Positions 351 through 52,755 are shown, numbered from the stretch's first letter. The stretch: DNA of 64,000 bases from Vicinamibacterales bacterium (GCA_965197385.1 CBDANA010000008.1:31717-95716), one strand, 5' to 3'. The notes: generated by a model from the sequence alone, not told the origin. Program-made: numbers and translations.

Positions 351-1806
351 CTACAGCTGTAAGCTATTGCTATAGAATGAGTTACATTGTCTCCATGGCA
401 GGCCGTCGTGCCACATGCCGTGCACCAGGAACGGCCAGCGCGCGGCCTTGTCGTCCAGCTCATACGGAAATTGCAAGCGCGTGGGATAGGTCGCGCGAAA
501 GGCATCGACCTGGGCGGTGGCGTCCTGGCGCATGGTGGCGATCCGCGCCTCGGCGTCCTGCTGAGGCCAAGGAGTCAAAGTCCCAATACAACTCAGCGGA
601 TCGAACATCGAGCATGGCGGGAACACTAGTGAGATTCTCGCCAAATGCCTTCGCAAGTTCAGACGCGGCGGAGGCGGCCATGTCTTCGATCCGGAGCGAT
701 GCCAACATATCTCGGACGAGAGCCAGCGCCGCGTCGCCGGACTCCCATCTCTCTGACGGTCGCATGACCATCTCTCCCGTGGCAGGATCGCGTTCAAACA
801 CCGGCGTCGCCTCAGTGAGCGCTGGGTGCAACCAGGCCAACAGCGCGATACCGTTTGACACTTGGACAGCGATGTCGGGTTCGGCAATGCCGGCGTCTTG
901 GATAGCGGCAGCCTGCGATTCCGCCATGAGCGAGAATACTGACTTGCCAAGGAACCGCTCGCGAGCGGCACCAATGAGCTGATGCAGGTATGGCACTTCC
1001 GCCGCCGGCCAGCTTACCTCTTCCATCACCATGCAGTCGTTGTCAGCGTTGTACCAACCGGCCCAGTCCGCTTCTGCCACTGACAGGTTGCGCGGAAACA
1101 CACATGCCGGCGACTGCGGGACGACCCAGTCGCGCTCGTTATGGACAACACCATCTGGCGAAACGACGAATGACCGACCGCTCTCGCCGTGGACAAGCAG
1201 GCGGTCTCCATCCTCTGTCTCGGTCGGTTCGGCAGGCTGCAGCGGCACCAGTGATGGACGGCCGAGTCTGATCGTGTGTGTGGCTCCCCGCGGCACATTT
1301 GCAGCGATGGCATCGACAATTCGGGTCAGTGACGGTGACAACCCCCTGAAGTCTAGGGTCCCGGTGATTAGTGCTTCTTTACACAAGACGGTTTCGCCGC
1401 CAGACTCGCTAGAATCGACGATTCGAGGGGGGCGGTATGGTGCAAACACGCCCCTCGACGTACTGACGTTCTGGAAATTCACGCTATATTCCGGAGTTGC
1501 GAACGGAGAAGTATCCACATGGATAGGCCTGTCGTCCACAGCACGGCGAACGATGAACGGAACGGCAACCGAGACCGCACGACGCTGAACCGAGTCCCCG
1601 TGGAGCCAGAGCTCAGTCAGGAGTGGGCTCGACAAGACATGGTCAACCAGTTGAAGCCCGTCCCAGAACTCCAGCTCAAACCCAGGAAAGTCATTCAGGT
1701 ACTCTCGTTTGCTTTGGGGAGAGAGCCGCGCCGTGGTCACGAATAAACCACTCTTACAGCCGAACTTCAGTAGGGCGTTGTTGCATGAATCGGAGCTAGC
1801 CCGCAC
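351..1806 (-). pseudogene. Disrupted gene: Mrr-type (PD-(D/E)XK) restriction-endonuclease-like domain fused to a ~380 aa domain of unknown family; 5' end cut by an IS, with a frameshift near 555-570
   Basis: ORF 460..1806 begins ..FGCKSGLFVTTARLSPQSKREY..FELEFWDGLQLVDHVL, which matches the C-terminal signature of Mrr-like nuclease domains. I do not recognise the rest. The coding-like frame switches near 555-570 into the frame of ORF 351..974 (..PWPQQDAEARIATMRQDATAQVDAF..). The upstream end abuts the IS5-family element. Confidence 0.5.
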
Positions 1807-3515: not shown

Positions 3516-4306
3516 GGCACAGTCAAGTTAACGAGTCCGGGACATACGAGGGCAGGCTAATCAGAGATCAGGCTGCCGTCACCGCGGTCCACACTGTGAA
3601 CGCTCGTGCCCGCAACATTCGATGCTGAACCGATCTCAGCCGGTGCCGACCCACGCGAAACAGATTGTGAATGATGCCGTGAACGTGCAAGAAACACTGC
3701 GCGTGGGCGGATGACGTGAAGCCGCGCATCTGACGCTCCCGTTGTCGCGTGGGTTGGTGCGACACTTCGGCCCGATTGTTCGCGTATCGCGTCGTGTCAT
3801 GGGTGACCAAAGGCATGACGTCCCGATGGGCGACACGGTAGCTGCCCAACGTGTCGGTCACGAGCCGCACGGGTTCCTGTCGCTGACTGTTCAACAGTCG
3901 GCGGAAGAATCTCCGCGCTGCCCGCGCGTCCCGACGGGGTTGTACGAGGATGTCGATCAGATCACCGTCTTGATCCACCGCGCGCCAGAGATACTGGCGC
4001 TCACCGTTGATCGTCACGAAGACTTCATCCAGGAACCACGTATCGCCGAGTCGACCCTGTCGGCGCTTCAACTGCCGAGCGTAGTCGGGGCCGAATGTCC
4101 CGCACCACTGCCGAATGGTTTCGTACGACACGATGATTCCTCGTTCGGCCAGCAGATCCTCAACATCCCGGAAGCTCATGCAGTATCTGTGGTAGAGCCA
4201 GACGGCATGGCTGATGATGTCGGGCGGAAAGCGATGCCGAAGGTAGCGGGGCCGGCGAGTGTTCATCCCGGCATTGTGCTGGGCGGAGAGTTAACTTGAC
4301 AATACC
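3516..4306 (-). mobile_element. IS6-family insertion sequence, copy 1 (~790 bp)
   Basis: Terminal inverted repeats are GGCACAGTCAAGTTAAC (3516-3532) and GGTATTGTCAAGTTAAC (reverse complement of 4290-4306). The flanking 8-mers differ, so there is no target-site duplication. Confidence 0.85.
3568..4266 (-). CDS. IS6-family transposase
   Basis: 232 aa, RFPPDIISHAVWLYHRYCMSFRDVEDLLAERGIIVSYETIRQW..LDEVFVTING..YLWRAVDQDG..TD.L.SY..NNRAEVSHQPTR.RER.MR.F. These blocks are IS26/IS6-like throughout. Confidence 0.92.
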   Translation of the reverse strand: MNTRRPRYLRHRFPPDIISHAVWLYHRYCMSFRDVEDLLAERGIIVSYETIRQWCGTFGPDYARQLKRRQGRLGDTWFLDEVFVTINGERQYLWRAVDQDGDLIDILVQPRRDARAARRFFRRLLNSQRQEPVRLVTDTLGSYRVAHRDVMPLVTHDTTRYANNRAEVSHQPTRQRERQMRGFTSSAHAQCFLHVHGIIHNLFRVGRHRLRSVQHRMLRARAFTVWTAVTAA

Positions 4307-9137: not shown

Positions 9138-10860
9138 CCCAGACCGTGTGAAAAGTCCAAGTCGTGGGTCGCTGATCCGGCAGCATCGAGGCTTGAGCAC
9201 GGTGGCGGGCTCGCGACCGCGGCGCCGATCAGTCGGGGCGTCAGTCGTGTCGGTCGCGTGAGGGACTGCTGCGATCGCCTGACGGCCAGATTCGGGCTGA
9301 TTGTCGCCCTGGAAGCGGGCGAAATAGGGGTTCAGCCGGCTGCCGCGGCGATCATCGCGGGAAGTCCCGCGAGATTGATCGCGCGTCGCATGTTGTAGGC
9401 CAAGGCGGTGAGGCTGAACTCCCCGCGGACGTTGTCGAGTCGACGCGTCAGGAACGCGCCCTGGCCCATCCACTGCTTGATCGACCCGAAGGGATGTTCG
9501 ACGGACTCCCGACGACGGTCCATCACCTCGGGCCGAGCCGCGAGGCGAGCCGCCATCCGATCCATCGTGGCTTCGTTCTCGTAGCGGACGAGCCGTCGGT
9601 GGGTGCCTTTGGTGCATCGGTCGCGTCGATCGCAGGACCGGCAGGCTGCGCGATTACCGTAGCTGATCACCCAGATCCCGTCGCGGGTCTTGCCGGCCCT
9701 GCCCCGATACAAGGGCACCAGACGCTGGCCAGCCGGACAACGGTAGGTGTCGGTTGCGGCGTCGTACTGGAACTCGGACTTGGTAACGTGGCCGCTGCTC
9801 CTGGCTGGGCTTCTATCGGGCTTCGGCACGAAGGGCGTGATCCCCCCAGCTTCGCAGTCCTCCATGTCCTCGATCTTGTAGTAGCCGCCGTCCGCGACCG
9901 CATCGAGCTCGTCGACAGCGAGGTTCTGCCGCGCCGCGGTGGCCGTCTCCGCCAGCAGGCCGAGGTCCGAGACCTTGCTGTGGACCTGCTGCTCGGCGAT
10001 CAGGTTGTGCTTGCTGTCGACCGCGATCTGGACGTTGTAGCCCACGCCGACCCGTGTCCCGGAGTGCATCGACCGGGAGTCCGGATCCGTAAGCGACAGC
10101 TGTGCCTCCCCGGTCTCGTCCAGCTTCTGCCGATGGCCCTCCAAGGTCTCCTTGCGTTTGCGGATCGACGCGATCTTGTCCTGAAGGTCCGCTACGGAGT
10201 TCCCTCCACCGCTGGCTGCGTTCGCATCGGCCTCGTTCATCTGTTCGAGGTAGCGTTCCAGCTGGTCGTCGATGCGCTGCAGGTCCCTCTTCAACGTGGC
10301 TCGCGTGAAGTTGCGGTCACGGTTGTTCACCGCCTTGATGCGCGTGCCGTCCACCGCGATCAACTCGCGCCCGTACAGGTCAAGTTCTCGGCATAGCCGC
10401 ACGAACTCCCGAAAGACCTGCCGGAAGGCGCTCCGGTTGTCGCGGCGGAAGTCGGCGATCGTCTTGAAGTCGGGGCGAAGCTGGCGCAGCAGCCAGATCA
10501 CCTCCAGGTTGCGGTGCGTCTCGACCTCCAGGCGCCGGCTGGACCGAACACGGTTGAGATACCCGTAGATGTAGAGCTTCAGCAGATCCGCAGGATCGTA
10601 GCCCGGGCGGCCCTTGTCGTTGGGCCGAACGCGCTGGAACCCCGTCTCCTCGAGATCGAGGCTATCGACGAAGGCATCAATGAAACGGACCGGGTTGTCC
10701 GGCCCCACATAATCGTCCACAGCGTCGGGGAGAAGCAGAAGCTGGGAACGGTCTTCACCGGATATGTGTCCCATGCCGCATTTTACCGAACGCCGTGGTG
10801 ACTCGCCGCTGGCTGATCGACCCTAAGCACTCCTGTCGACGACTTTTCACACGGTCTGGG
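9138..10860 (-). mobile_element. IS1182-family insertion sequence (1723 bp) with perfect 20-bp terminal inverted repeats, inserted at the centre of a palindrome
   Basis: CCCAGACCGTGTGAAAAGTC at 9138-9157 is the exact reverse complement of 10841-10860. The flanks 9104-9137 and 10861-10884 reconstitute the palindrome seen intact at 4403-4462. Confidence 0.88.
9332..10774 (-). CDS. IS1182-family transposase
   Basis: 480 aa, MGHISGEDRSQLLLLPDAVDDYVGPDNPVRFIDAFVDSLDL..GRPGYDPADLLKLYIYGYLNRVRSSRRLE..NLEVIWLL..L.PDFKTIADFRRDN.. Confidence 0.92.
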   Translation of the reverse strand: MGHISGEDRSQLLLLPDAVDDYVGPDNPVRFIDAFVDSLDLEETGFQRVRPNDKGRPGYDPADLLKLYIYGYLNRVRSSRRLEVETHRNLEVIWLLRQLRPDFKTIADFRRDNRSAFRQVFREFVRLCRELDLYGRELIAVDGTRIKAVNNRDRNFTRATLKRDLQRIDDQLERYLEQMNEADANAASGGGNSVADLQDKIASIRKRKETLEGHRQKLDETGEAQLSLTDPDSRSMHSGTRVGVGYNVQIAVDSKHNLIAEQQVHSKVSDLGLLAETATAARQNLAVDELDAVADGGYYKIEDMEDCEAGGITPFVPKPDRSPARSSGHVTKSEFQYDAATDTYRCPAGQRLVPLYRGRAGKTRDGIWVISYGNRAACRSCDRRDRCTKGTHRRLVRYENEATMDRMAARLAARPEVMDRRRESVEHPFGSIKQWMGQGAFLTRRLDNVRGEFSLTALAYNMRRAINLAGLPAMIAAAAG

Positions 10861-12953: not shown

Positions 12954-14039
12954 GTGACGAACCACAGGACTATCCAGCCTGACGCGCGGAAGGTGATCGT
13001 CGGCGTGGACACCCACAAGCACGTCCACGTGGCCGTGGCGATCGACACGAGGGGGGTCCGCCTCGACGATCGATCGTGTGCCGCCGACTCAGACGGCTAC
13101 CAACAGCTGATCACCTGGGCCGAGCGTCACGGCCGCATCGCCGCGTTCGGCATCGAGGGCACCGGCAGCTACGGGGCGGGACTCACTCGCGCGGTCCGGC
13201 GAGCCGGGCACCAGGTGCTCGAAGTGAACCGAGGCGACCGGCGCACACGTCGAATCGCCGGGAAGTCCGACCCCGTGGATGCCGAGACCGCCGCGCGGTC
13301 GGTTCTGGCGGGCCAATCGACCGCCATCCCGAAGACCGCGGACGGAGCGGTCGAGATGATGCGCCACCTCAAAGTCGCGCGCCGGACGGCGGTCAAAGCC
13401 CGCACCTCGGCGATGATCACGCTGAAGCAGATCGTCGTCACCGCGCCGCCCGCGCTGCGAGAGACCCTCAACCCGCTCGCCGACCAGGCGCTCCTCAAAC
13501 GCTGCCGCGGATGGCGCTGCGGCACGATCGATACGCCGACCGCCTCGGCGAAACATACCCTCCGGGCGCTCGCCCGTCGCTGGTTCGCTCTCTCCGTCGA
13601 AATCGTGGACCACGACCGTCACGTGAGTCGACTCACCACCCAGACCTCACCGACGCTGCGTGAGGGCTTCGGCATCGGTGCCGACACCGCCGCCGAACTG
13701 CTGATCATCTTTGGCGACACCCCCGATCGGATTCATTCTGAAGCCGCCTTCGCCAAGCTTTGCGGGGCCTGCCCCATCCCGGCTTCGTCCGGGATGACGA
13801 CGGGGCGCCACCGCCTCTACCGCGGCGGTCATCGCCAGGCCAACGCCGCGCTCCACCGGGCCGTCATCGTGCGGATGCGGTTCCACACACCAACCCTCAA
13901 CTACGTCGAACGACGCACCGCTGAAGGGCGGCCCAAACGGGAGATCATCCGCTGTCTTAAACGCTTTCTCGCCCGCGAGATCTTTCAGCGCGTGATGGCA
14001 GACTACCGAGCGCGCCAAGCCGCAGACTTGGCGGCCTGA
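12954..14039 (+). CDS. IS110-family transposase/recombinase
   Basis: 361 aa, ..VIVGVDTHKHVHVAVAID..FGIEGTGSYGAGL..AGH.VLEVN..KSDPVDAE.AAR.. (DEDD N-domain) and a C-terminal ..PIPASSG....HRL.RGG.RQANAALH... block. GTG start. Confidence 0.92.
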   Translation: MTNHRTIQPDARKVIVGVDTHKHVHVAVAIDTRGVRLDDRSCAADSDGYQQLITWAERHGRIAAFGIEGTGSYGAGLTRAVRRAGHQVLEVNRGDRRTRRIAGKSDPVDAETAARSVLAGQSTAIPKTADGAVEMMRHLKVARRTAVKARTSAMITLKQIVVTAPPALRETLNPLADQALLKRCRGWRCGTIDTPTASAKHTLRALARRWFALSVEIVDHDRHVSRLTTQTSPTLREGFGIGADTAAELLIIFGDTPDRIHSEAAFAKLCGACPIPASSGMTTGRHRLYRGGHRQANAALHRAVIVRMRFHTPTLNYVERRTAEGRPKREIIRCLKRFLAREIFQRVMADYRARQAADLAA

Positions 14040-25657: not shown

Positions 25658-26179
25658 TCAGAAGGCGAGGCGCCGCGGTTCCGCGTCGAGCGCCACGCCC
25701 TCGTGCTCGAGCAGCCAGCGCTTCCGCTCGAGGCCGCCGCCGTACCCCCTTAGCGATCCGTCCGCACCCAACACGCGATGGCACGGCACGATGATGCTCG
25801 CAGGATTTCGGCCGACCGCCAGACCGACGGCACGGGCGCCGTTCGGGCGCCGCAGCTCCCGCGCCAGCGCGCCGTAGGAATCCGTCCGGCCAAACGGGAT
25901 ATCGAGCAGCGCCTGCCAGACGGACAGCTCGAAGGAGGTCCCGCGCAGATCCAGGCTGATGTCGGACGCCCGGGGCCACGCGCCGGCGAAGTACCGATCG
26001 AGCCAGTCGCCGATCGGCGCAGGTGGGTCCGGTGCGGCCTCCACGATCTCGGCATCCGGAAACCACCGGCGCCGTGTGGGGCGCGGGCACTCGAGCGCGC
26101 AGACCCCGCGCGCGGACGTCACGGCGAGGACCTCACCCAGCGGCGTGCGCAACATCGTCATCGCGATCGTCTGAGGCAT
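25658..26179 (-). CDS. ogt: Methylated-DNA--protein-cysteine methyltransferase
   Basis: ..TSFELSVWQALLDIPFGRTDSYGALA..ARAVGLAVGRNPASIIVPCHRVLGADGSLRGYGGGLERKRWLLEHE, with the PCHRV active site. Confidence 0.92.
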   Translation of the reverse strand: MPQTIAMTMLRTPLGEVLAVTSARGVCALECPRPTRRRWFPDAEIVEAAPDPPAPIGDWLDRYFAGAWPRASDISLDLRGTSFELSVWQALLDIPFGRTDSYGALARELRRPNGARAVGLAVGRNPASIIVPCHRVLGADGSLRGYGGGLERKRWLLEHEGVALDAEPRRLAF

Positions 26180-27963: not shown

Positions 27964-28968
27964 TTAGCGTCTCGACGCCGAAACCCTGCCGGCGGTCTCG
28001 AGCATCGCGTCGGTGGCCGCGCGACTCACCTCGACGAGGCGCGCCGCCACCCCGTCCCGGGATCGGGTGCCGGGGGTCGGCTGCTCGGCCATCACGACGT
28101 AGACAATCACGCCCTCCGGTCCATCCCAGAATCCCGATCGAATCCGGGTCATCGGGTCGCTGCCGAGCGATCCGCTCTTGAAGTAATGCATCCCCAGCGA
28201 GCCGTCATCCTCCGGCACTCGCAGGATCTTCCAGAGCGCGGTCACCGTGTCGCTCGAGAGCCCGGGCAGGTCGCGTGCGGCCACTCGCTGCAGCACCGCA
28301 GCCAGCGCCGCGGCCGTGGCCTCGTTGTCGCCGGTGACGTCGCGGGCTGCGAGCATGTAGCGCCGCACCACGAGCCCGCCGAACGCCGGATCCCGATCGT
28401 GGATGAGGCCGGTCAGCGCCTCCGGGCCGCCCAGCAGCGCGGTCGTGACGTTCGCCGCGGCGTTGTAGACCGCGTTCGACACGTCGGTGCCGCGGATCAT
28501 CATCTACCCGATCCGCCGGATCGTCGCATCGGCGATCTCGGCCCGTATGTCGGCCCGGTCGTCTACCGTGAAGTGCGCGATGGCCGGGTGGGCGTCGTCG
28601 TTGACGATCGCATCGGCGCCAGACGCCGGCGCGTCGAGCGCGTCGGCATAGGCGGCGAACAGCTCGATCAGATAGGCGGTCCTGATGGCGCTGGCCGACG
28701 CCCGGATCGTCGAGGCCTCGCGCGCGAACCAGGCCTCGCCGGTCGGTCCGCCGACCCACACGCTCAGCGCCAATCCGTCGCCGCGGCCTGGCGTGACGAG
28801 CGCGTCGAGACGCCGGTCGAGTGCCTCGACGTCGACCGTTGGCGTCGGCACCTGCGCCGGATTGGCCGATTGCGGCTCGACGGGCGGCGCGCCGTAGCCG
28901 GCCACCCACAGCCCAGCCACCAGGGCTAGCAGCTGACTCGGCCGGCTAGTCGTCCATCCAGCGCTCAT
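27964..28968 (-). pseudogene. Class-A beta-lactamase-fold serine hydrolase interrupted by an in-frame TAG (28504-28506)
   Basis: ORFs 28504..28968 and 27964..28503 are contiguous in one frame: ..ATIRRIG*MMIRGTDVSNAVYN.. The SxxK position reads SAIR (..RASASAIRTAYLIELF..) and a KSG motif is present (..HYFKSGSLG..). Confidence 0.65.
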
Positions 28969-36321: not shown

Positions 36322-37611
36322 CTACCGGACGTAGCCGAGCGAACGGAGGGTTTCCATGCCTTCCTCGCTCAGTCCCGGCACCTCACCGGCCGACACCGCC
36401 GTTCGCGGTTCGCGCAGCGCCTGTCCCAGTAGGGCGGCAAGGCATAGCGATGTGTCGAGCTCTACGGAAACGAGGTTCGTCGTTTCGCCGGGATCGGCGG
36501 TGAGGTTGTACACTTCCGGTCGGGCCAGGTCGTCGCCTCGTACAATGACCTTCCACCCGAGCGTGCGGTACGCATAGGCGGGCCGCTCGCCGACGGATCG
36601 CGCGACCACCGATCGCCTGACCTCGTACGTCGCTGGGGCCAGAAGGTCCGATCCCGTTAGAGGTCGATCGGGCTCGAGTCCTACGTAGCCGAGCACCGTC
36701 GGTAGGACGTCGGCGAGCGTCACCAACGCCTCGGTGTCCACCGATTCCGGAACGACACCGCCGGGCAGGCGCTGGATGAACGGAATCCCGAGCATCTCGT
36801 CGTAGACGGTCGTGTTGTGGCCCATGCGGCCATGTTCCTCGAACGCTTCACCATGATCGGACAGCACGATCACCATCGTCTGATCCCACCGGTCGCGCCG
36901 CCGTAAGGTCTCCAACACTTGACCCACCGCATCGTCACCCATGCGCAGGTTACCGTCGTAGAGCGACACAATGTGGTTCAGATCGGCCGCGCCCGGCTGC
37001 AGCTCGCCCTGATTGATCGCGCGTACCGTCCGCAACAGGCCGGTGTACGGTCCAGCGTAGTCGGCGTCGGTGAAGATGTCGAACTCCTCCGTGGGTTCAT
37101 ACGGCAAATGGGGAGGGACATAGTGCAGCATCAGGAGCAGCGGCTGATCGGAGTCCTAGAGGAGGTGTTCGTTGGCCAGCGCCGACAGCCGGTGCGGGTT
37201 GTTCCATTCCTCGTGCTGCCGTCCATCCGGCCCGCGCCACAGTTCGTGAAACTCGTCGCAGCCTTGATCAGTGCCGGAGGCGACCGAGTGGTTCGCGTTC
37301 GCTGTGTAGCAGACCGTTCGGTATCCGACGTCTTGGAGGTACTCGGCCAAGGTGCGGGCATCGTCGCCCAGGACCCGATCCTGGGAGATCACCTCGTGCT
37401 CGTCGAACGACAATCCCGTGATCATCGTGGGCACCGATGAGCGGGTGTACGGCGTCGATGCGAACGCGTGGCGGAAGACGAGGCTCTCGGTGGCCAGATC
37501 GTCGATGTACGGCGTCGTATCACGTCCGTAGCCATACACGCCGACGTGATCGGCTCGGGCAGCGTCCAGCAAGATCACGACGATATCGGGCAGCGCTTCG
37601 GTCCCTGACAC
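36322..37611 (-). pseudogene. Sulfatase-family hydrolase interrupted by an in-frame TAG (37156-37158)
   Basis: ORF 37156..37611 (..IVVILLDAARADH..FASTPYTRSSVPTMITG..) ends ..ANEHLL*. The same frame continues DSDQPLLLMLHYVPPHLPY... into ORF 36322..37131 (..VLSDHGEAFEEHG..GHNTTVYDE..). Confidence 0.8.
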
Positions 37612-40372: not shown

Positions 40373-43300
40373 CTACCGCCGCGCGTCCGCATCCTGACGG
40401 AGAATGATGGCCGGCACGCCCTTGCTCCGCACCAACTCGTTGAAACGGGGCAGCTCCGTGGCCAGCGTCACCTCGGCCTGCTCGAGCAGTTCCGCAAGAC
40501 CGGGCTGAATGTCCGCGAACCGCTCCCGGGTCCCGGCGGAGGGACGCCGGTCGGCCCCGGCCACGTTGTTGTACAGCGCGACGAACTGATTATCCAGGCG
40601 CCCCGGAAAATTGAGGGCGTCCTGACCCTCTTCACCCTCCAGCTGGGTCAACTCGCCCTCGATCGCCGTGAGCCGCTCACTCAACGCCGCGGCGGCGGCG
40701 GCCACGTCATCGCCGTGGCCGGCCCGCTCCAGGCGCTCGCCGATGTCGGTCGCCTGCGATTTGACCTCCCGCAGTCGGCGCAGCTCCGCGTAGAGATCGG
40801 CGATACGAAGCCCCACCGCCCTGGCCAACTCCAGCTGCTCTCGGTACTCCGCCTGCGTCGTCTCCAGGCGCGGATCGCCCCACACCTCGAACGACTGCGT
40901 GTCGCTCCAGTCACCCATCGTCGCCCGCACCTGGTACCGGCCCGGCACGACGCGCGGCGCGCCCTGGGATCGGTCCCACATGACGATCCCCTCTGAAATC
41001 TTGAACAGCGACGCATAGCGAGCGTTCCACGACACCTTGTTCAAGCCGTCGCTCAGCGTCACGGCGTCGGGATCGTCGTCGGCCGCCTCCCCGCCTTCAT
41101 CCTCGTCTTCTGCGCGGCCCGTGTAGCTGCGCACCACTTGGCCGGCCTCGTCGAGGATGTCGATCGTCACCTCAACCTCACTGTCCGTCGCTTCGTCCAG
41201 ATACAGGAAGATGGACGCAGGGCCGGCGCCGCTGCGGTACACGTCGGCCGGCGCGAACAGGCGCGGGCCGTCGACCGCGACGCCCGGCTCGAGCTGCCGG
41301 ACCACGGCGAGATCGTCGAGCACCCAGAAGGCGCGTCCCTGTGTCGCGACGATGAGGTTGCTCTGGTGCACCGCCAGGTCGGTCACCGGCGTCACCAGCA
41401 GGTTCAGCTGCAGCGGCTGCCAGTGCGCGCCGTCGTCGAAGGAGACGTACAGCCCGAACTCGGTACCGGCGTAGAGCAGGCCGCGTCGCCCTGGATCCTC
41501 CCGTACGACGCGCACGAACTGATCGGCCGGAAGGCCGTTGTCGCCGTCGGTGAGACGCGCCCAGGTGGGGCCGTAGTCGTTCGTCTGAAAGATGTAAGGT
41601 GCAAAGTCGTCCTGCCGGTACCGATAGACGGCCACGTGCGCCCGTCCCGCATCGTGGCGCCGACAGATCGACCACGTTGACGACGCCAAACTCGGGCATC
41701 CCCGGTGGCGTGATCTCGGTCCACGCGCCACCGCCATCCCGCGAAAGATGAATGCGCCCGTCGTCGGAGCCAGCCCACAGCAATCCAGCCGCGTGGGGTG
41801 ACTCCTCGAACGCGAAGATCGTGCCGTAGACCTCGACGCCGGTGTTGTCGCGCGTGATGCCACGACCGCCTGAATAGTCCTGCTTCGTGCCATCGTCGCG
41901 GGTCAGGTCTGGGCTGATGACCTCCCAGCGGTGTCCGCCGTCGCGCGTCCGGTGCACGACCTGCGAGGTGTGGTAGACGACATCCGGATCGTGCGGGGAA
42001 ATCCGGATCGGCGCGTTCCACTGGAACCGGTAGGTCATGTCGACCGCGCGCTGGCCGGTCTGCAAGTCCGGATAGGCGCGGATGTTTTCGAGAATCCGCG
42101 TGCGGACGTTCATCCGGGTGATGGTGCCGCCGTAGCTCCCAGCGAAGACGATGTCCGGATCTCTCGGATCCACCGCCATGTGCCCGCTCTCTCCGCCGCC
42201 CACCGAATAGAAGTTGCCGGGGCCCCAGCTCGCAACCAACACAGTGCTGTTGTCCTGCTGGGCGCCGTAGACGCGGTACGGGAACTGGTTGTCCGCCGTG
42301 ACGCGGTAGATCTCGGCGGTCGGCTGATTCACCTGCGTCGACCAGGCCTGCCCCCGGTGAGCGACACGTTCGCGCCGCCGTCGTTCGCATTGACCATCAC
42401 CGCCGGATCGTCGGGATTGATCCACAAGTCATGGTTGTCCCCATGTGGCACGGCGATCTGGTCGTAGGTACGGCCTCGATCCGTGGACTTGTAGAGCGCG
42501 GTATTGAGTGCGTAGACCGTATCCGGATCGTTCGGATCGGCGTAGATGTGGATGTAATACCAGGCGCGCTGCAACAACTTCCGCTCGCCATTGACGCGCT
42601 CCCAGGTGTCACCGGCGTCGTCCGACCGATACATGCCGCCCCGGTCGTCGGCCGCCTCGATGAGCGCCCAGACCCGCTCCGGATTCGCTGGGGACACCGC
42701 CACCGCCGTTTTCCCCACCATGACGTCGGTCGGCAGCCCGCCCTCGAGCCGCGTCCACGTGTCGCCGCCGTCGGTTGTCCTGTAGATCCCGCCGTCCATG
42801 CTGCCGCTGTCTATCGACCAGGGGGTGCGCCGCGCCGCCCACATGCCGGCGTAGAGCACTCGAGGATTCGACGGATCCATCGACAGATCGACGGCGTCGG
42901 TCTGGTCGCTCACCGCCAGGACGTGCTCCCAGGACTCCCCGCCGTCCTTCGACCGGAAGACGCCGCGCGGCGCGCTCGGACCGAAGAGGTTGCCGAGCAC
43001 GGCGACGTACACCAGATCGTGGTTCGTCGGATGGACCCGGATCTTTCCGATTTGGCCGGCCTCGGGCAGGCCGGCATGCCGCCAGGTCTTGCCGGCGTCG
43101 GTCGAGCGGTACATTCCGACGCCGGGCGATACATTGCCGCGGGGGCAGGCCGACCCGGTCCCGACGTAGATGACGTTCACATCGGAGTCCGCGACGGCGA
43201 TCGCCCCGATCGACCCGGCCTCGAACGCCTCGTCGGAGACCGGGATCCACGACTGGCCGGCATCGACCGTCTTCCACACGCCACCACCGGTCAAACCGAA

Positions 43301-43552
43301 GTAGTAGACCAGGGGCTGCCCCCGGACGCCGGTGACTGCCGTCGACCGTCCACCACGCGAAAAATCGAGCTGACGATACTCGAGCGTGTCGAACAACGCC
43401 GGATCGACCGTGATGTGACGCGCCGCCTCGGGTGCGCGCGGCCGAGCGCCGAGTGGGACGGGCGCAGCGATCGCACTCCCCACCAGGACGAGGACTGCCA
43501 GCAGGATCCCGCTGAACGTTCCGACCGCGGATGATGACGATGACCAGGACAT
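40373..43552 (-). pseudogene. Large secreted sortilin/BNR-repeat (VPS10-like) protein broken into three ORFs by two frameshifts
   Basis: ORFs 42329..43615, 41178..42425 and 40373..41893 each carry one consecutive third of a single ~1060 aa protein (..GGGVWKTVDAGQSW.., ..YRSTDAGKTW.., ..TTDGGDTW.. / ..QPTAEIYRVTADNQFPYRVYGAQQDNSTV.. / ..YRYRQDDFAPYIFQTNDYGPTW..). The shifts are at the C5 run 42351-42355 and near 41655-41662. Confidence 0.85.
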
Positions 43553-51043: not shown

Positions 51044-51329
51044 ACGTCGCTCCAGTCGACAGGTGCCGCCAGCGGCATTATACGGGGCAGCGTGCGAAGG
51101 CCGGCCCAGGAAGGATCGCTCTCGGAGTGCGTCTAGGCAGAACTTCACAACGCGATTGGCCGCCGCGGGCGCGCCACATCGTCGAGCCGGCATTCGACCC
51201 GCCCGAATCCCCGGCGGCGGAAGCGATCGCTGGACCGGCGAGCCTACCCGGCCAGGCGGACGCCAGCTCGTAGGCCGCGCTGTCGAGCGTTCTTCGTATT
51301 CGCTCTAGCGGCCCTGGACTCACCCCCCC

Positions 51330-51870
51330 ATCCGCCACAGGGTCCGCGCTAGCAGCCCGCGGCCTCCAGAGGACGTCAATCGCCCAGACCTCATCCAGGC
51401 GTTGCGCTAGTCGCTCGAATGCGGCTGGTTCGAGCTTCTTGGTGAGAATGTGGTGCAGCCTCTCACGCCACTCAGCGTCGTCGTTAGACGGATCGTCGGT
51501 CGTACTGCTCTTGGCCTACGGCTTCGTCTTTGGTCCCTCCGTCTTGTCGAGGGCCCTGACGAACTTCACAACTTCGCCCGAATCGATTTCTTCGGTAGCT
51601 TTCGCTTTCGGAGTCAGTGCCCAGACGCCACGGCTTGAGTTCTCCAGCAGTCCAAATTTCCGTAGATAGGTCCGCGCCCAGGCAAGGCGATACGCCACTT
51701 CTGACACATTGCTCTTCTCGGGGTCGTGAAGCTGTCCAAGCACCTCTTCCGGGATGCTCTCCAGTTCAGCAACCTTGTCGTAGATTCCGTCGATCGAGCC
51801 TGACCCCCCCCAAGGCGCAAAGGGCCCGAAGCAACGGGTTCATCAGACTGTCGTATGTTGGCAGCTTCAC
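51330..51870 (-). pseudogene. Mrr-like restriction endonuclease remnant: N-terminal winged-helix (Mrr_N) domain with a +1 frameshift in a C8/G8 tract, an in-frame TAG, and loss of the catalytic domain
   Basis: VKLPTYDSLMNPLLRALCALGG (ORF 51766..52023) continues, after removing one G of the G8 run (51804-51811), as SGSIDGIYDKVAELESIPEEVLGQLHDPEKSNVSEVAYRLAWARTYLRKFGLLENSSRGVWALTPKA.. (ORF 51516..51743). A TAG lies at 51516-51518. The frame then reads ..AEWRERLHHILTKKLEPAAFERLAQRL.. and homology fades. The segment has lower GC. Confidence 0.75.
51804..51811. repeat. C8 (G8 on the coding strand) homopolymer inside the Mrr-like gene
   Basis: Counted directly. It is the site of the +1 frameshift. 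Confidence 0.95.
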
Positions 51871-52185
51871 GATTGTATTTTCCTGACGTCTGACGTCAAA
51901 CAAATGTCGGCCGAACTCGATAACCCAGTATCTGAGCGACGGCTGCGGTGTAGCGCGCCGGTCGGCCGGATTCAATTTGCCAGGAAGTGCTACTACCATC
52001 GTTGCTTGTCGTTGTATCAGCAAGGGCAGCAGGCGGGATACGCAGAACTCGACAACACGGAGGCGGGCCGCAGGTCGCGCCTGAATACCGGTGAGTACTC
52101 AGGCCAATTTCTGACAGATTGCGACTATGATCGCCCCAGGGGCGCGGGCTGATCCGCGCTCCTCCGACCGACTCGAGGGCTCCCC

Positions 52186-52755
52186 ATGGCGTGGATCAAG
52201 ACGATCGGCTACGAACACTCCGCCGGCCTGCTGCGCCTGGAATACGACAAGGCGATCAAGCGCGCCGGCAAGATCTACAACATCGTCGGCATCATGGGCC
52301 TGCGGCCGATGCAGATGAAGGCGAGCATGGATCTCTACGGCGCCATCATGCACGGCCGCGCCGCGCTCAGTCGCGCGCAGCGGGAAATGCTGGCGGTCGT
52401 CGTCTCGCAGATCAACCAGTGTCATTATTGAGTGGAAGCGCACGCCGACGACCTCCGGGCCGAGGTCGCCGAGATCGAGGACGACGCGTTCGTGGACCGC
52501 TTCAAAGTGGACTGGCGCAGCGCCGACCTGACGTCGCTGGACGGTGCGCTCATGGCGTACGCGGAGAAGCTGACCCGCACGCCGTGGGACGTCAGACCCG
52601 AGGACCTGGACCAGCTGCGCGGGGCCGGCGCGACCGACGACCAGATCAGCGACGCGGCCCAGGTGATCGCCTACTTCAATTACATCAATCGGGTCGCCGA
52701 CGGCCTGGGCGTGGACCTCGAGCCGTCGATGCCCCCCGATCCGCGGGGCGGCTAA
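52186..52755 (+). CDS. AhpD/carboxymuconolactone-decarboxylase-family 'peroxidase-related' protein with an in-frame TGA at 52429-52431 (candidate selenocysteine; otherwise a pseudogene)
   Basis: ORFs 52186..52431 and 52432..52755 are contiguous in one frame. The junction reads ..LAVVVSQINQCHY[TGA]VEAHADDLR.., matching C-x-x-[C]-x-x-x-H of the family. The C-terminal half (..ALMAYAEKLT......L..L...G..D..I.DAAQVIAYFNYINR.A..LG) is typical of the family. Confidence 0.6.
52447..52470 (+). promoter_or_regulatory. Hairpin 15 nt downstream of the in-frame TGA; candidate bacterial SECIS element
   Basis: GACGACCUC-CGGGCC-GAGGUCGCC gives 8 Watson-Crick pairs with one A/C mismatch and a 6-nt loop containing G. 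The apical loop is ~27 nt from the U of UGA. Confidence 0.4.

Follow-up and report, generated by a model that had tools for sequence, protein, structure and literature searches.

The AhpD-like gene at positions 52186-52755 of the Vicinamibacterales DNA analyzed here (a single stretch of 64,000 nucleotides, GCA_965197385.1 CBDANA010000008.1:31717-95716, referred to below as the window) most probably carries a genuine selenocysteine (Sec) codon and a SECIS element and is an ordinary member of the catalogued AhpD-like (CxxU) selenoprotein family. The probability of this reading is put at about 0.93. Its basis is an uninterrupted frame on either side of a conserved in-frame TGA, selection on both halves of the gene, a hairpin that is conserved and covaries, and membership in the family. 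The actual insertion of Sec, the binding of SelB and the redox chemistry of the product are predicted from these data.

Reading frame, product and family assignment

The frame extends from ATG 52186 to TAA 52753-52755 and its sole interruption is TGA 52429-52431, located at the second cysteine of a C-x-x-C-x-x-x-H motif. The peptide across the junction reads QINQCHY*VEAHADDL. The original prediction, made from the sequence of the window alone, had described two contiguous ORFs in the same frame parted only by this TGA, and that description is correct. In the public gene calls of same-species contigs the gene is accordingly split into ORFs of 81 and 107 amino acids. The proposed assignment to the AhpD/CMD 'peroxidase-related' family also holds. 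When Sec is treated as Cys, the protein of 189 residues is recognized by Pfam CMD (3e-14) and reaches 134.4 bits with TIGR01926 'peroxidase-related enzyme', the cut-off of which is 81.8, with residues 25-178 of the protein aligned to model positions 24-175 of 178. Cys-containing homologs (CHYC or CFYC in P0037 and P0042) and the solved structures place the second cysteine of CxxC at the TGA, as had been anticipated in the claim that the stop replaces the second redox cysteine. The features discussed in this and the following sections are listed in Table 1.

Table 1. Coordinates of the features in the 64-kb window
Feature	Position	Strand	Remarks
AhpD-like CDS	52186-52755	+	single frame, ATG 52186 to TAA 52753-52755, 189 residues (TIGR01926)
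Shine-Dalgarno-like GAGGG	52175-52179	+	6 nt upstream of ATG 52186; putative, from reading of the sequence
Glu67 codon GAA	52384-52386	+	predicted proton-relay glutamate, 12 residues ahead of Cys79; invariant in alignment A3
Cys79 codon TGT	52420-52422	+	first residue of the CxxU redox motif; presumed resolving cysteine
UGA codon, predicted to be read as Sec	52429-52431	+	residue 82, motif C79-H-Y-U82; aligns with the second Cys of CxxC
His86 codon CAC	52441-52443	+	predicted proton-relay histidine of C-x-x-U-x-x-x-H; nearly invariant in alignment A3
SECIS-like hairpin	52449-52468	+	stem 52449-52455 CGACCUC / 52462-52468 GAGGUCG; loop 52456-52461 CGGGCC
Transposases (DDE_Tnp_1_5 / IS240-type / DUF772-DDE_Tnp_1_6 / IS110)	1828-2892, 3568-4266, 9332-10774, 12954-14039	-, -, -, +	four types in 64 kb, at least four genes in total
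Truncated sulfatase stub	37156-37611	-	
Mrr_N ORF	51519-51743	-	Pfam Mrr_N, 3e-11
ORF adjacent to Mrr_N	51769-52023	-	other frame, no Pfam match; by eye resembles the start of the Mrr_N domain

Conservation of the TGA codon and selection on the downstream half

Across 161 distinct homologous genes, drawn from at least eight phyla plus metagenomes, the TGA column shows no variation. All 80 species-representative genomes returned by a GTDB scan have TGA at the Sec column; these carriers include Acidobacteriota, Chloroflexota, Planctomycetota, Marinimicrobia, Latescibacterota, Acidimicrobiia, Verrucomicrobiota and Calditrichota. The codon is likewise kept in 78 metagenome loci. Within the clade of the window, nine distinct sequences (alignment A2) share the TGA, and around this fixed triplet the neighboring codons for Cys, His and Tyr show synonymous variation (TGT/TGC, CAT/CAC, TAT/TAC). 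A comparison of the orthologs for Cys versus TGA at this column, which had been suggested as a check, yielded TGA in all close relatives and TGC or TGT in none.

Both halves of the gene are coding and under purifying selection, as had been supposed from their appearance. The dN/dS ratio ranges from 0.10 to 0.62 in the half before the TGA and from 0.09 to 0.33 in the half after it, at dS values of up to 1.2-1.4, and the only indels past the TGA in the clade alignment, of 9 nt and 3 nt, preserve the frame. The low dN/dS together with the in-frame indels indicates that the C-terminal half has long been maintained in frame by selection. These observations bear directly on the caveat raised with the original prediction, that a TGC- or TGT-to-TGA nonsense mutation might simply have inactivated an AhpD-like gene of a genome in which lesions accumulate. 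The transposases and fragmented genes of the window lend that idea some plausibility, as does the variable splitting of neighboring genes in relatives. However, a pseudogene would not be expected to retain one and the same TGA in 161 distinct genes of at least eight phyla, nor a downstream half that is still under purifying selection at dS > 1 with nothing but in-frame indels; moreover, the lesions of the neighboring genes differ between strains but the TGA of the AhpD-like gene never does. Inactivation by a nonsense mutation is thus very improbable.

A one-base sequencing or assembly error at the TGA, the other trivial source of an in-frame stop, has a negligible probability. The window shares this codon with three same-species contigs, each from a different ENA sample, and with nine or more other clade assemblies, which makes at least 13 independent clade assemblies in all. 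The exact C-terminal ORF of the window occurs on eight contigs, and the three same-species loci differ from the window by 0-2 bases in the gene.

Gene callers have rendered the closest database proteins (70-92% identical) as C-terminal halves of 104-107 amino acids, and in the contigs from which they derive an 81-aa ORF abuts each one, with the break at the same TGA. Among the best 120 protein matches, the Sec column is occupied by W in 95 and by G in one; four have CxxC, eight TxxC and three CxxR, and six further matches are called as C-terminal halves only. Among the closest relatives listed, the ratio of Sec to Cys forms is roughly 8 to 1. The 95 W-bearing proteins and the single G might be taken to mean that UGA is decoded without selenium, either under a variant code in which UGA specifies Trp or Gly or by SECIS-independent read-through by a near-cognate tRNA. 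Arguing against this possibility is the DNA of the W-bearing proteins, which has TGA in both of the cases examined (2 of 95); in these, W looks like a gene-calling artefact that arose when TGA was translated under a code with TGA = Trp. In addition, 68 of 159 family genes terminate with TGA, among them seven of the eight other clade sequences in alignment A2, which implies that TGA is a normal stop codon in these organisms. With Trp or Gly in place of the catalytic residue the motif would be inactive, and the downstream hairpin conforms to the rules for SECIS elements (see below). Decoding of the UGA as an amino acid other than Sec is therefore regarded as highly unlikely.

Equally hard to credit is a split gene, in which translation would stop at the UGA and restart at the adjacent GUG 52432 to yield two polypeptides that assemble into an enzyme. 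The codon after the TGA is indeed GTG in the clade of the window, and gene callers start the 107-aa ORF there. Across the family, however, ATG, GTG or TTG follows the TGA in only 23 of 161 genes, the codon at this position being mostly ACG, ATT, ATC or ATA, and no Shine-Dalgarno-like motif lies ahead of 52432. The break would also remove the catalytic residue itself, and the constraint that acts on the hairpin at the RNA level would be left unexplained.

A few homologs depart from the common pattern at the Sec column. In P0027 the codon is AGA (Arg), one base from TGA. This form was found in two independent assemblies (L179:3001-3582 and L180:638-1219) and its SECIS-like hairpin is intact, with six of six core pairs; the AGA may mark a recent change from Sec to Arg or be a relic. 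Sample ERZ25766727, the source of the closed same-species genome described below, also contains a Cys-form (CFYC) homolog (L094:2001-2555), which lies on a separate 621-kb contig and adjoins a rhodanese gene and transposases.

The hairpin downstream of the UGA

The original prediction placed a hairpin at 52447-52470, 15 nt after the UGA. The hairpin is real and its 7-bp core, 52449-52468, is conserved; the two outer positions, namely the pair 52447/52470 and the A.C mismatch 52448/52469, are not, so that the family-wide stem consists of 7 bp. Its energy is -10.5 kcal/mol and the distance from the UGA to the apical loop is 24 nt. The published model of the bacterial SECIS (bSECIS) comprises an apical loop of 3-9 nt and an upper stem of 4-16 bp (PMC13188914, Fig. 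2), a G within the first two loop positions that is usually followed by G or U (PMC13188914), a UGA-to-loop distance of 16-37 nt and a minimum free energy of -7.5 kcal/mol or lower (PMC13188914). With a 6-nt loop, a 7-bp stem, G-G at loop positions 2-3 and the above values of distance and energy, the hairpin of the window fits every one of these constraints; both the distance that had been thought suitable for a bacterial SECIS and the bSECIS rules themselves thus speak for it. In 160 of 160 family sequences, loop position 2 is a G and position 3 a G or U. The loop reads C-G-(G/U)-G because its Arg codon is always CGG or CGT.

Taken alone, the hairpin is unconvincing, because in DNA of 67% GC its folding energy is no better than that of shuffled sequences (single-sequence folding, z from -1.2 to +1.0, not significant). 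An Rfam search at gathering thresholds gave no match within the 64-kb window. It is the comparative tests, all made on sequences, that lift the hairpin above chance. The RNA alignment comprised 81 distinct sequences and covered, free of gaps, 48 nt from the TGA onward. From these 81 sequences RNAalifold predicts exactly the 7-bp stem. The cells of the stem are paired in 95.9% of cases, as opposed to 21-46% after the 3' partner has been shifted by 1-3 columns. Double compensatory changes occur in three of the seven pairs (31 cells), a level reached by none of 500 shuffles; they convert C-G to U-A at two core pairs and exchange C-G, U-A and G-C at the closing pair. The remainder of the stem is mostly invariant and covariation is confined to these three pairs. 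The hairpin is thus conserved with compensatory changes in the TGA-containing orthologs, a comparison that had been suggested as a check.

The stem overlaps the codons of a conserved peptide, D-L-R-x-E-V, which means that conservation of its nucleotides is partly driven by the protein, and for this reason synonymous sites were tested directly. The Leu codon in the stem is CTC in 73 of 74 sequences, compared with 38% CTY elsewhere in those genes (p=5e-28); the Val codon in the stem is GTC or GTT in 69 of 71, compared with 57% elsewhere (p=3e-14); and the Arg codon in the loop is CGG or CGT in 160 of 160, compared with 39% elsewhere (p=5e-62). CGC, the commonest Arg codon elsewhere in the family genes, is absent from the loop.

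A covariance model was built from distant relatives, with the clade of the window left out. In the 64-kb window it matches at 52429-52476 only, with 59.9 bits and an E-value of about 3e-20; the runner-up scores 7.8 bits. Two Cys-form homologs score 22 and 18 bits with this model and have kept D-L-x-x-E but lost the stem (4 of 6 core pairs), a comparison of n=2. A scan of metagenomes with Cys forms as seeds recovered 78 loci, every one a TGA form, and no new Cys form. The SECIS of this subfamily might be an unusually rigid, family-wide element embedded in the D-L-R-x-E-V codons and nearly unchanged over at least eight phyla, a proposal that we consider possible but rather doubtful.

Eight metagenome loci (L102, L111, L113, L125, L141, L151, L161 and L168) have kept the TGA and lack the standard stem, only 1-3 of its 6 pairs being formed. 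Most of them read H-G-E-D-L-R-Q/K-(E/I/L)-T and L111 reads H-A-E-D-L-R-M-V-T. By eye, these loci may instead contain a shifted hairpin closer to the UGA (e.g. CGGGG/AGGAU/CUCCG). Such natural variants, namely the AGA form with its intact hairpin and the subclade with the shifted hairpin, could be used to probe how much of the SECIS is needed by SelB.

Selenocysteine machinery and genomic support

The 64-kb window and the 20-kb flanks of close relatives turned out to contain no selA, selB, selD or tRNA-Sec gene. ARAGORN reported zero tRNAs in the window and zero tRNA-Sec in the flanks of close relatives, and tblastn with approximate E. coli SelD and SelB queries gave no match in loci L001-L175 and the window, which together represent only small parts of the genomes. 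A tRNA-SeC gene (626-722, minus strand, anticodon TCA) is present in L058, a chromosome of Phototrophicaceae (Chloroflexota), 9.3 kb from the AhpD-like gene. Acidobacteria were already known to contain selenoproteins (PMC1794560). That the TGA, the hairpin and the C-terminal half have been under purifying selection for so long would be hard to explain if Sec were not decoded. The presence of the gene also predicts the use of selenium by the uncultured source organism.

A closed circular contig of 4,378,642 bp (ctg362382_19x_c, ENA ERZ25766727) represents the genome of the same species and is 99.5% identical to the window over 20 kb. The best match in the genome scan was a Vicinamibacterales MAG in which the AhpD-like gene is 63% identical and the adjacent penicillin amidase 65% identical over 772 amino acids. 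Judged by this shared synteny, the source organism is probably Acidobacteriota-like.

Predicted mechanism and chemistry of the product

In the proposed mechanism, UGA 52429-52431 would be recoded co-translationally as selenocysteine. The mRNA hairpin 52449-52468, 18 nt downstream of the UGA, would act as a bacterial SECIS element and recruit the SelB.GTP.Sec-tRNA(Sec) complex to the ribosome while the UGA occupies the A site. The predicted product is a thiol/selenol oxidoreductase of 189 residues in which C79-H-Y-U82-x-x-x-H86 together with E67 would constitute an AhpD-type proton-relay set.

This assignment draws on characterized AhpD proteins. The proton relay of AhpD consists of Glu118, Cys130, His132, Cys133 and His137 in the M. 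tuberculosis protein and of Glu36, Cys48, Tyr50, Cys51 and His55 in PA0269 (PMC3141380). The residues E67, C79, Y81, U82 and H86 of the window protein show the same spacing, E-(11)-C-x-x-C-x-x-x-H, with Y81 as in PA0269. The distance from Glu67 to Cys79 equals that from Glu118 to Cys130 in M. tuberculosis AhpD and from Glu36 to Cys48 in PA0269, and His86 is the equivalent of His137 and His55, respectively. In M. tuberculosis AhpD it is the exposed Cys133 that enters into a mixed disulfide with AhpC, and Cys130 is partly buried (PMC6626918, citing Bryk 2002 and Koshkin 2004). Since the second cysteine is the attacking residue in that protein, Sec82, by analogy, would take the place of the exposed attacking cysteine, and Cys79 would be the likely resolving partner that forms a selenenylsulfide with Sec82. 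The likely activity, again by analogy, would be the reduction of an oxidized partner of the peroxiredoxin type or of peroxide directly. A search of the annotated ORFs of the 64-kb window for a member of the AhpC/peroxiredoxin family found none.

Genomic context of the window

The window had been described as rich in nonsense and frameshift lesions. This is accurate with respect to the transposases, the sulfatase stub, a split BNR/sortilin-type protein and the Mrr_N remnant. It does not extend to stops of the kind seen in the AhpD-like gene: a crude scan of the window revealed no other in-frame TGA with a strong coding signal on both sides inside a recognized domain. The scan returned one other TGA, at 25658-25660 (-), which was taken as a gene boundary. 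An in-frame TAG at 28504-28506 (-) separates the strongly coding ORFs 27964-28503 and 28507-28968, both without a Pfam match; the TAG may represent a nonsense lesion or simply the border between two adjacent genes.

An unannotated gap of 992 bp (51194-52185) upstream of the AhpD-like gene contains the remnant of the N-terminal domain of an Mrr-type restriction enzyme (Table 1). The same spot is occupied by an IS transposase (DUF772 + DDE_Tnp_1) in L003 and L004, and in L001 the gap measures only about 140 bp. A segment of 2.85 kb (40658-43504) is absent from the same-species contigs L176-L178, which are 99.5% identical to the window on both sides of it. Within it lie pieces of a BNR/sortilin-type protein, the intact form of which (1070 aa) is encoded in L003 and L004. 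The genes that flank the AhpD-like gene, for penicillin amidase, gamma-glutamyltranspeptidase, CN-hydrolase, peptidase S9 and GH109, are split or shortened in some of the relatives L001-L004 and L176-L178 and not in others, which suggests either that genes are still eroding or that the long-read assemblies contain indel errors.

Significance

For biology the finding matters little, as it adds one more ortholog to a selenoprotein family that has been catalogued since 2005. It matters more for annotation, in which the gene appears as an 81-aa and a 107-aa ORF on same-species contigs and 95 of the best 120 database proteins bear Trp at the catalytic position, with TGA as the codon in both cases examined. 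The main practical value thus lies in a corrected annotation and in the predicted use of selenium by an uncultured organism.

Comparison with known systems

The surmise that AhpD-like proteins are a family in which Sec and Cys replace each other is well founded in the literature. An AhpD-like selenoprotein family was first reported in 2005, when 27 sequences (COG2128, CXXU) with a predicted SECIS were described from the Sargasso Sea (PMC1088965). The GOS study of 2008 counted 299 Sec forms and 902 Cys homologs of 'AhpD-like 1' (CxxU), the fourth most abundant of its prokaryotic selenoprotein families (PMC2398784). A review of 2026 contains the entry 'AhpD-like protein, TIGR01926, CxxU' (PMC13188914), and the BSepDB paper uses the AhpD-like family as its browse example (PMC13326102). 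The cited family literature describes the selenoprotein status of the family as computationally predicted, and evidence from selenium labelling was not found in it. The gene of the window shares with this family (COG2128/TIGR01926) an HMM score above the cut-off, CxxU with Sec as the second residue, the existence of Cys-containing homologs and a downstream SECIS hairpin with a small apical loop that contains G. There is no substantive difference; the copy in the window comes from an uncultured organism and is split into two ORFs in public gene calls.

AhpD_rel_CFYUT (NF041238), like other CMD-type CxxU selenoproteins, has a related fold and the CxxU motif in common with the window protein. It is a different family: the score is 74.1 bits against a cut-off of 175 and involves only the C-terminal part of the 357-position model. 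Likewise, the window protein is not an orthologue of canonical AhpD (TIGR00777), for which it scores 22.7 bits against a cut-off of 191.95. With M. tuberculosis AhpD and PA0269 it nevertheless shares the CMD/AhpD helical core, the relay Glu, Cys-x-(His/Tyr)-Cys and the His at identical spacing; it differs in the attacking position, where those proteins have Cys and the window protein has a predicted Sec.

The closest solved relatives are 2oyo, 2pfx, 2prr, 3c1l and 6k40, with E-values of 1e-27 to 1e-18 over about 160 residues, of which 2oyo and 6k40 reach about 1e-27 over residues 20-179. The first four are 'uncharacterized peroxidase-related proteins' and 6k40 is named 'Alkyl hydroperoxide reductase AhpD'. 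All five are Cys forms, and their N-x-C-x-Y-C-x-x-x-H aligns with N-Q-C-H-Y-U-V-E-A-H of the window protein. Judged by these alignments, the fold and the aligned motif are already fixed by solved homologs at E about 1e-27. We take 6k40 to be the structure of Deinococcus radiodurans DR_1765 that is presented in PMC8945050. A D. radiodurans mutant that lacks the AhpD-like protein is sensitive to H2O2 and is poorly complemented by CxxC mutants (PMC8945050). The gene of the window almost certainly belongs to this long-known AhpD-like family of selenoproteins rather than being a broken gene or a system of a novel type.
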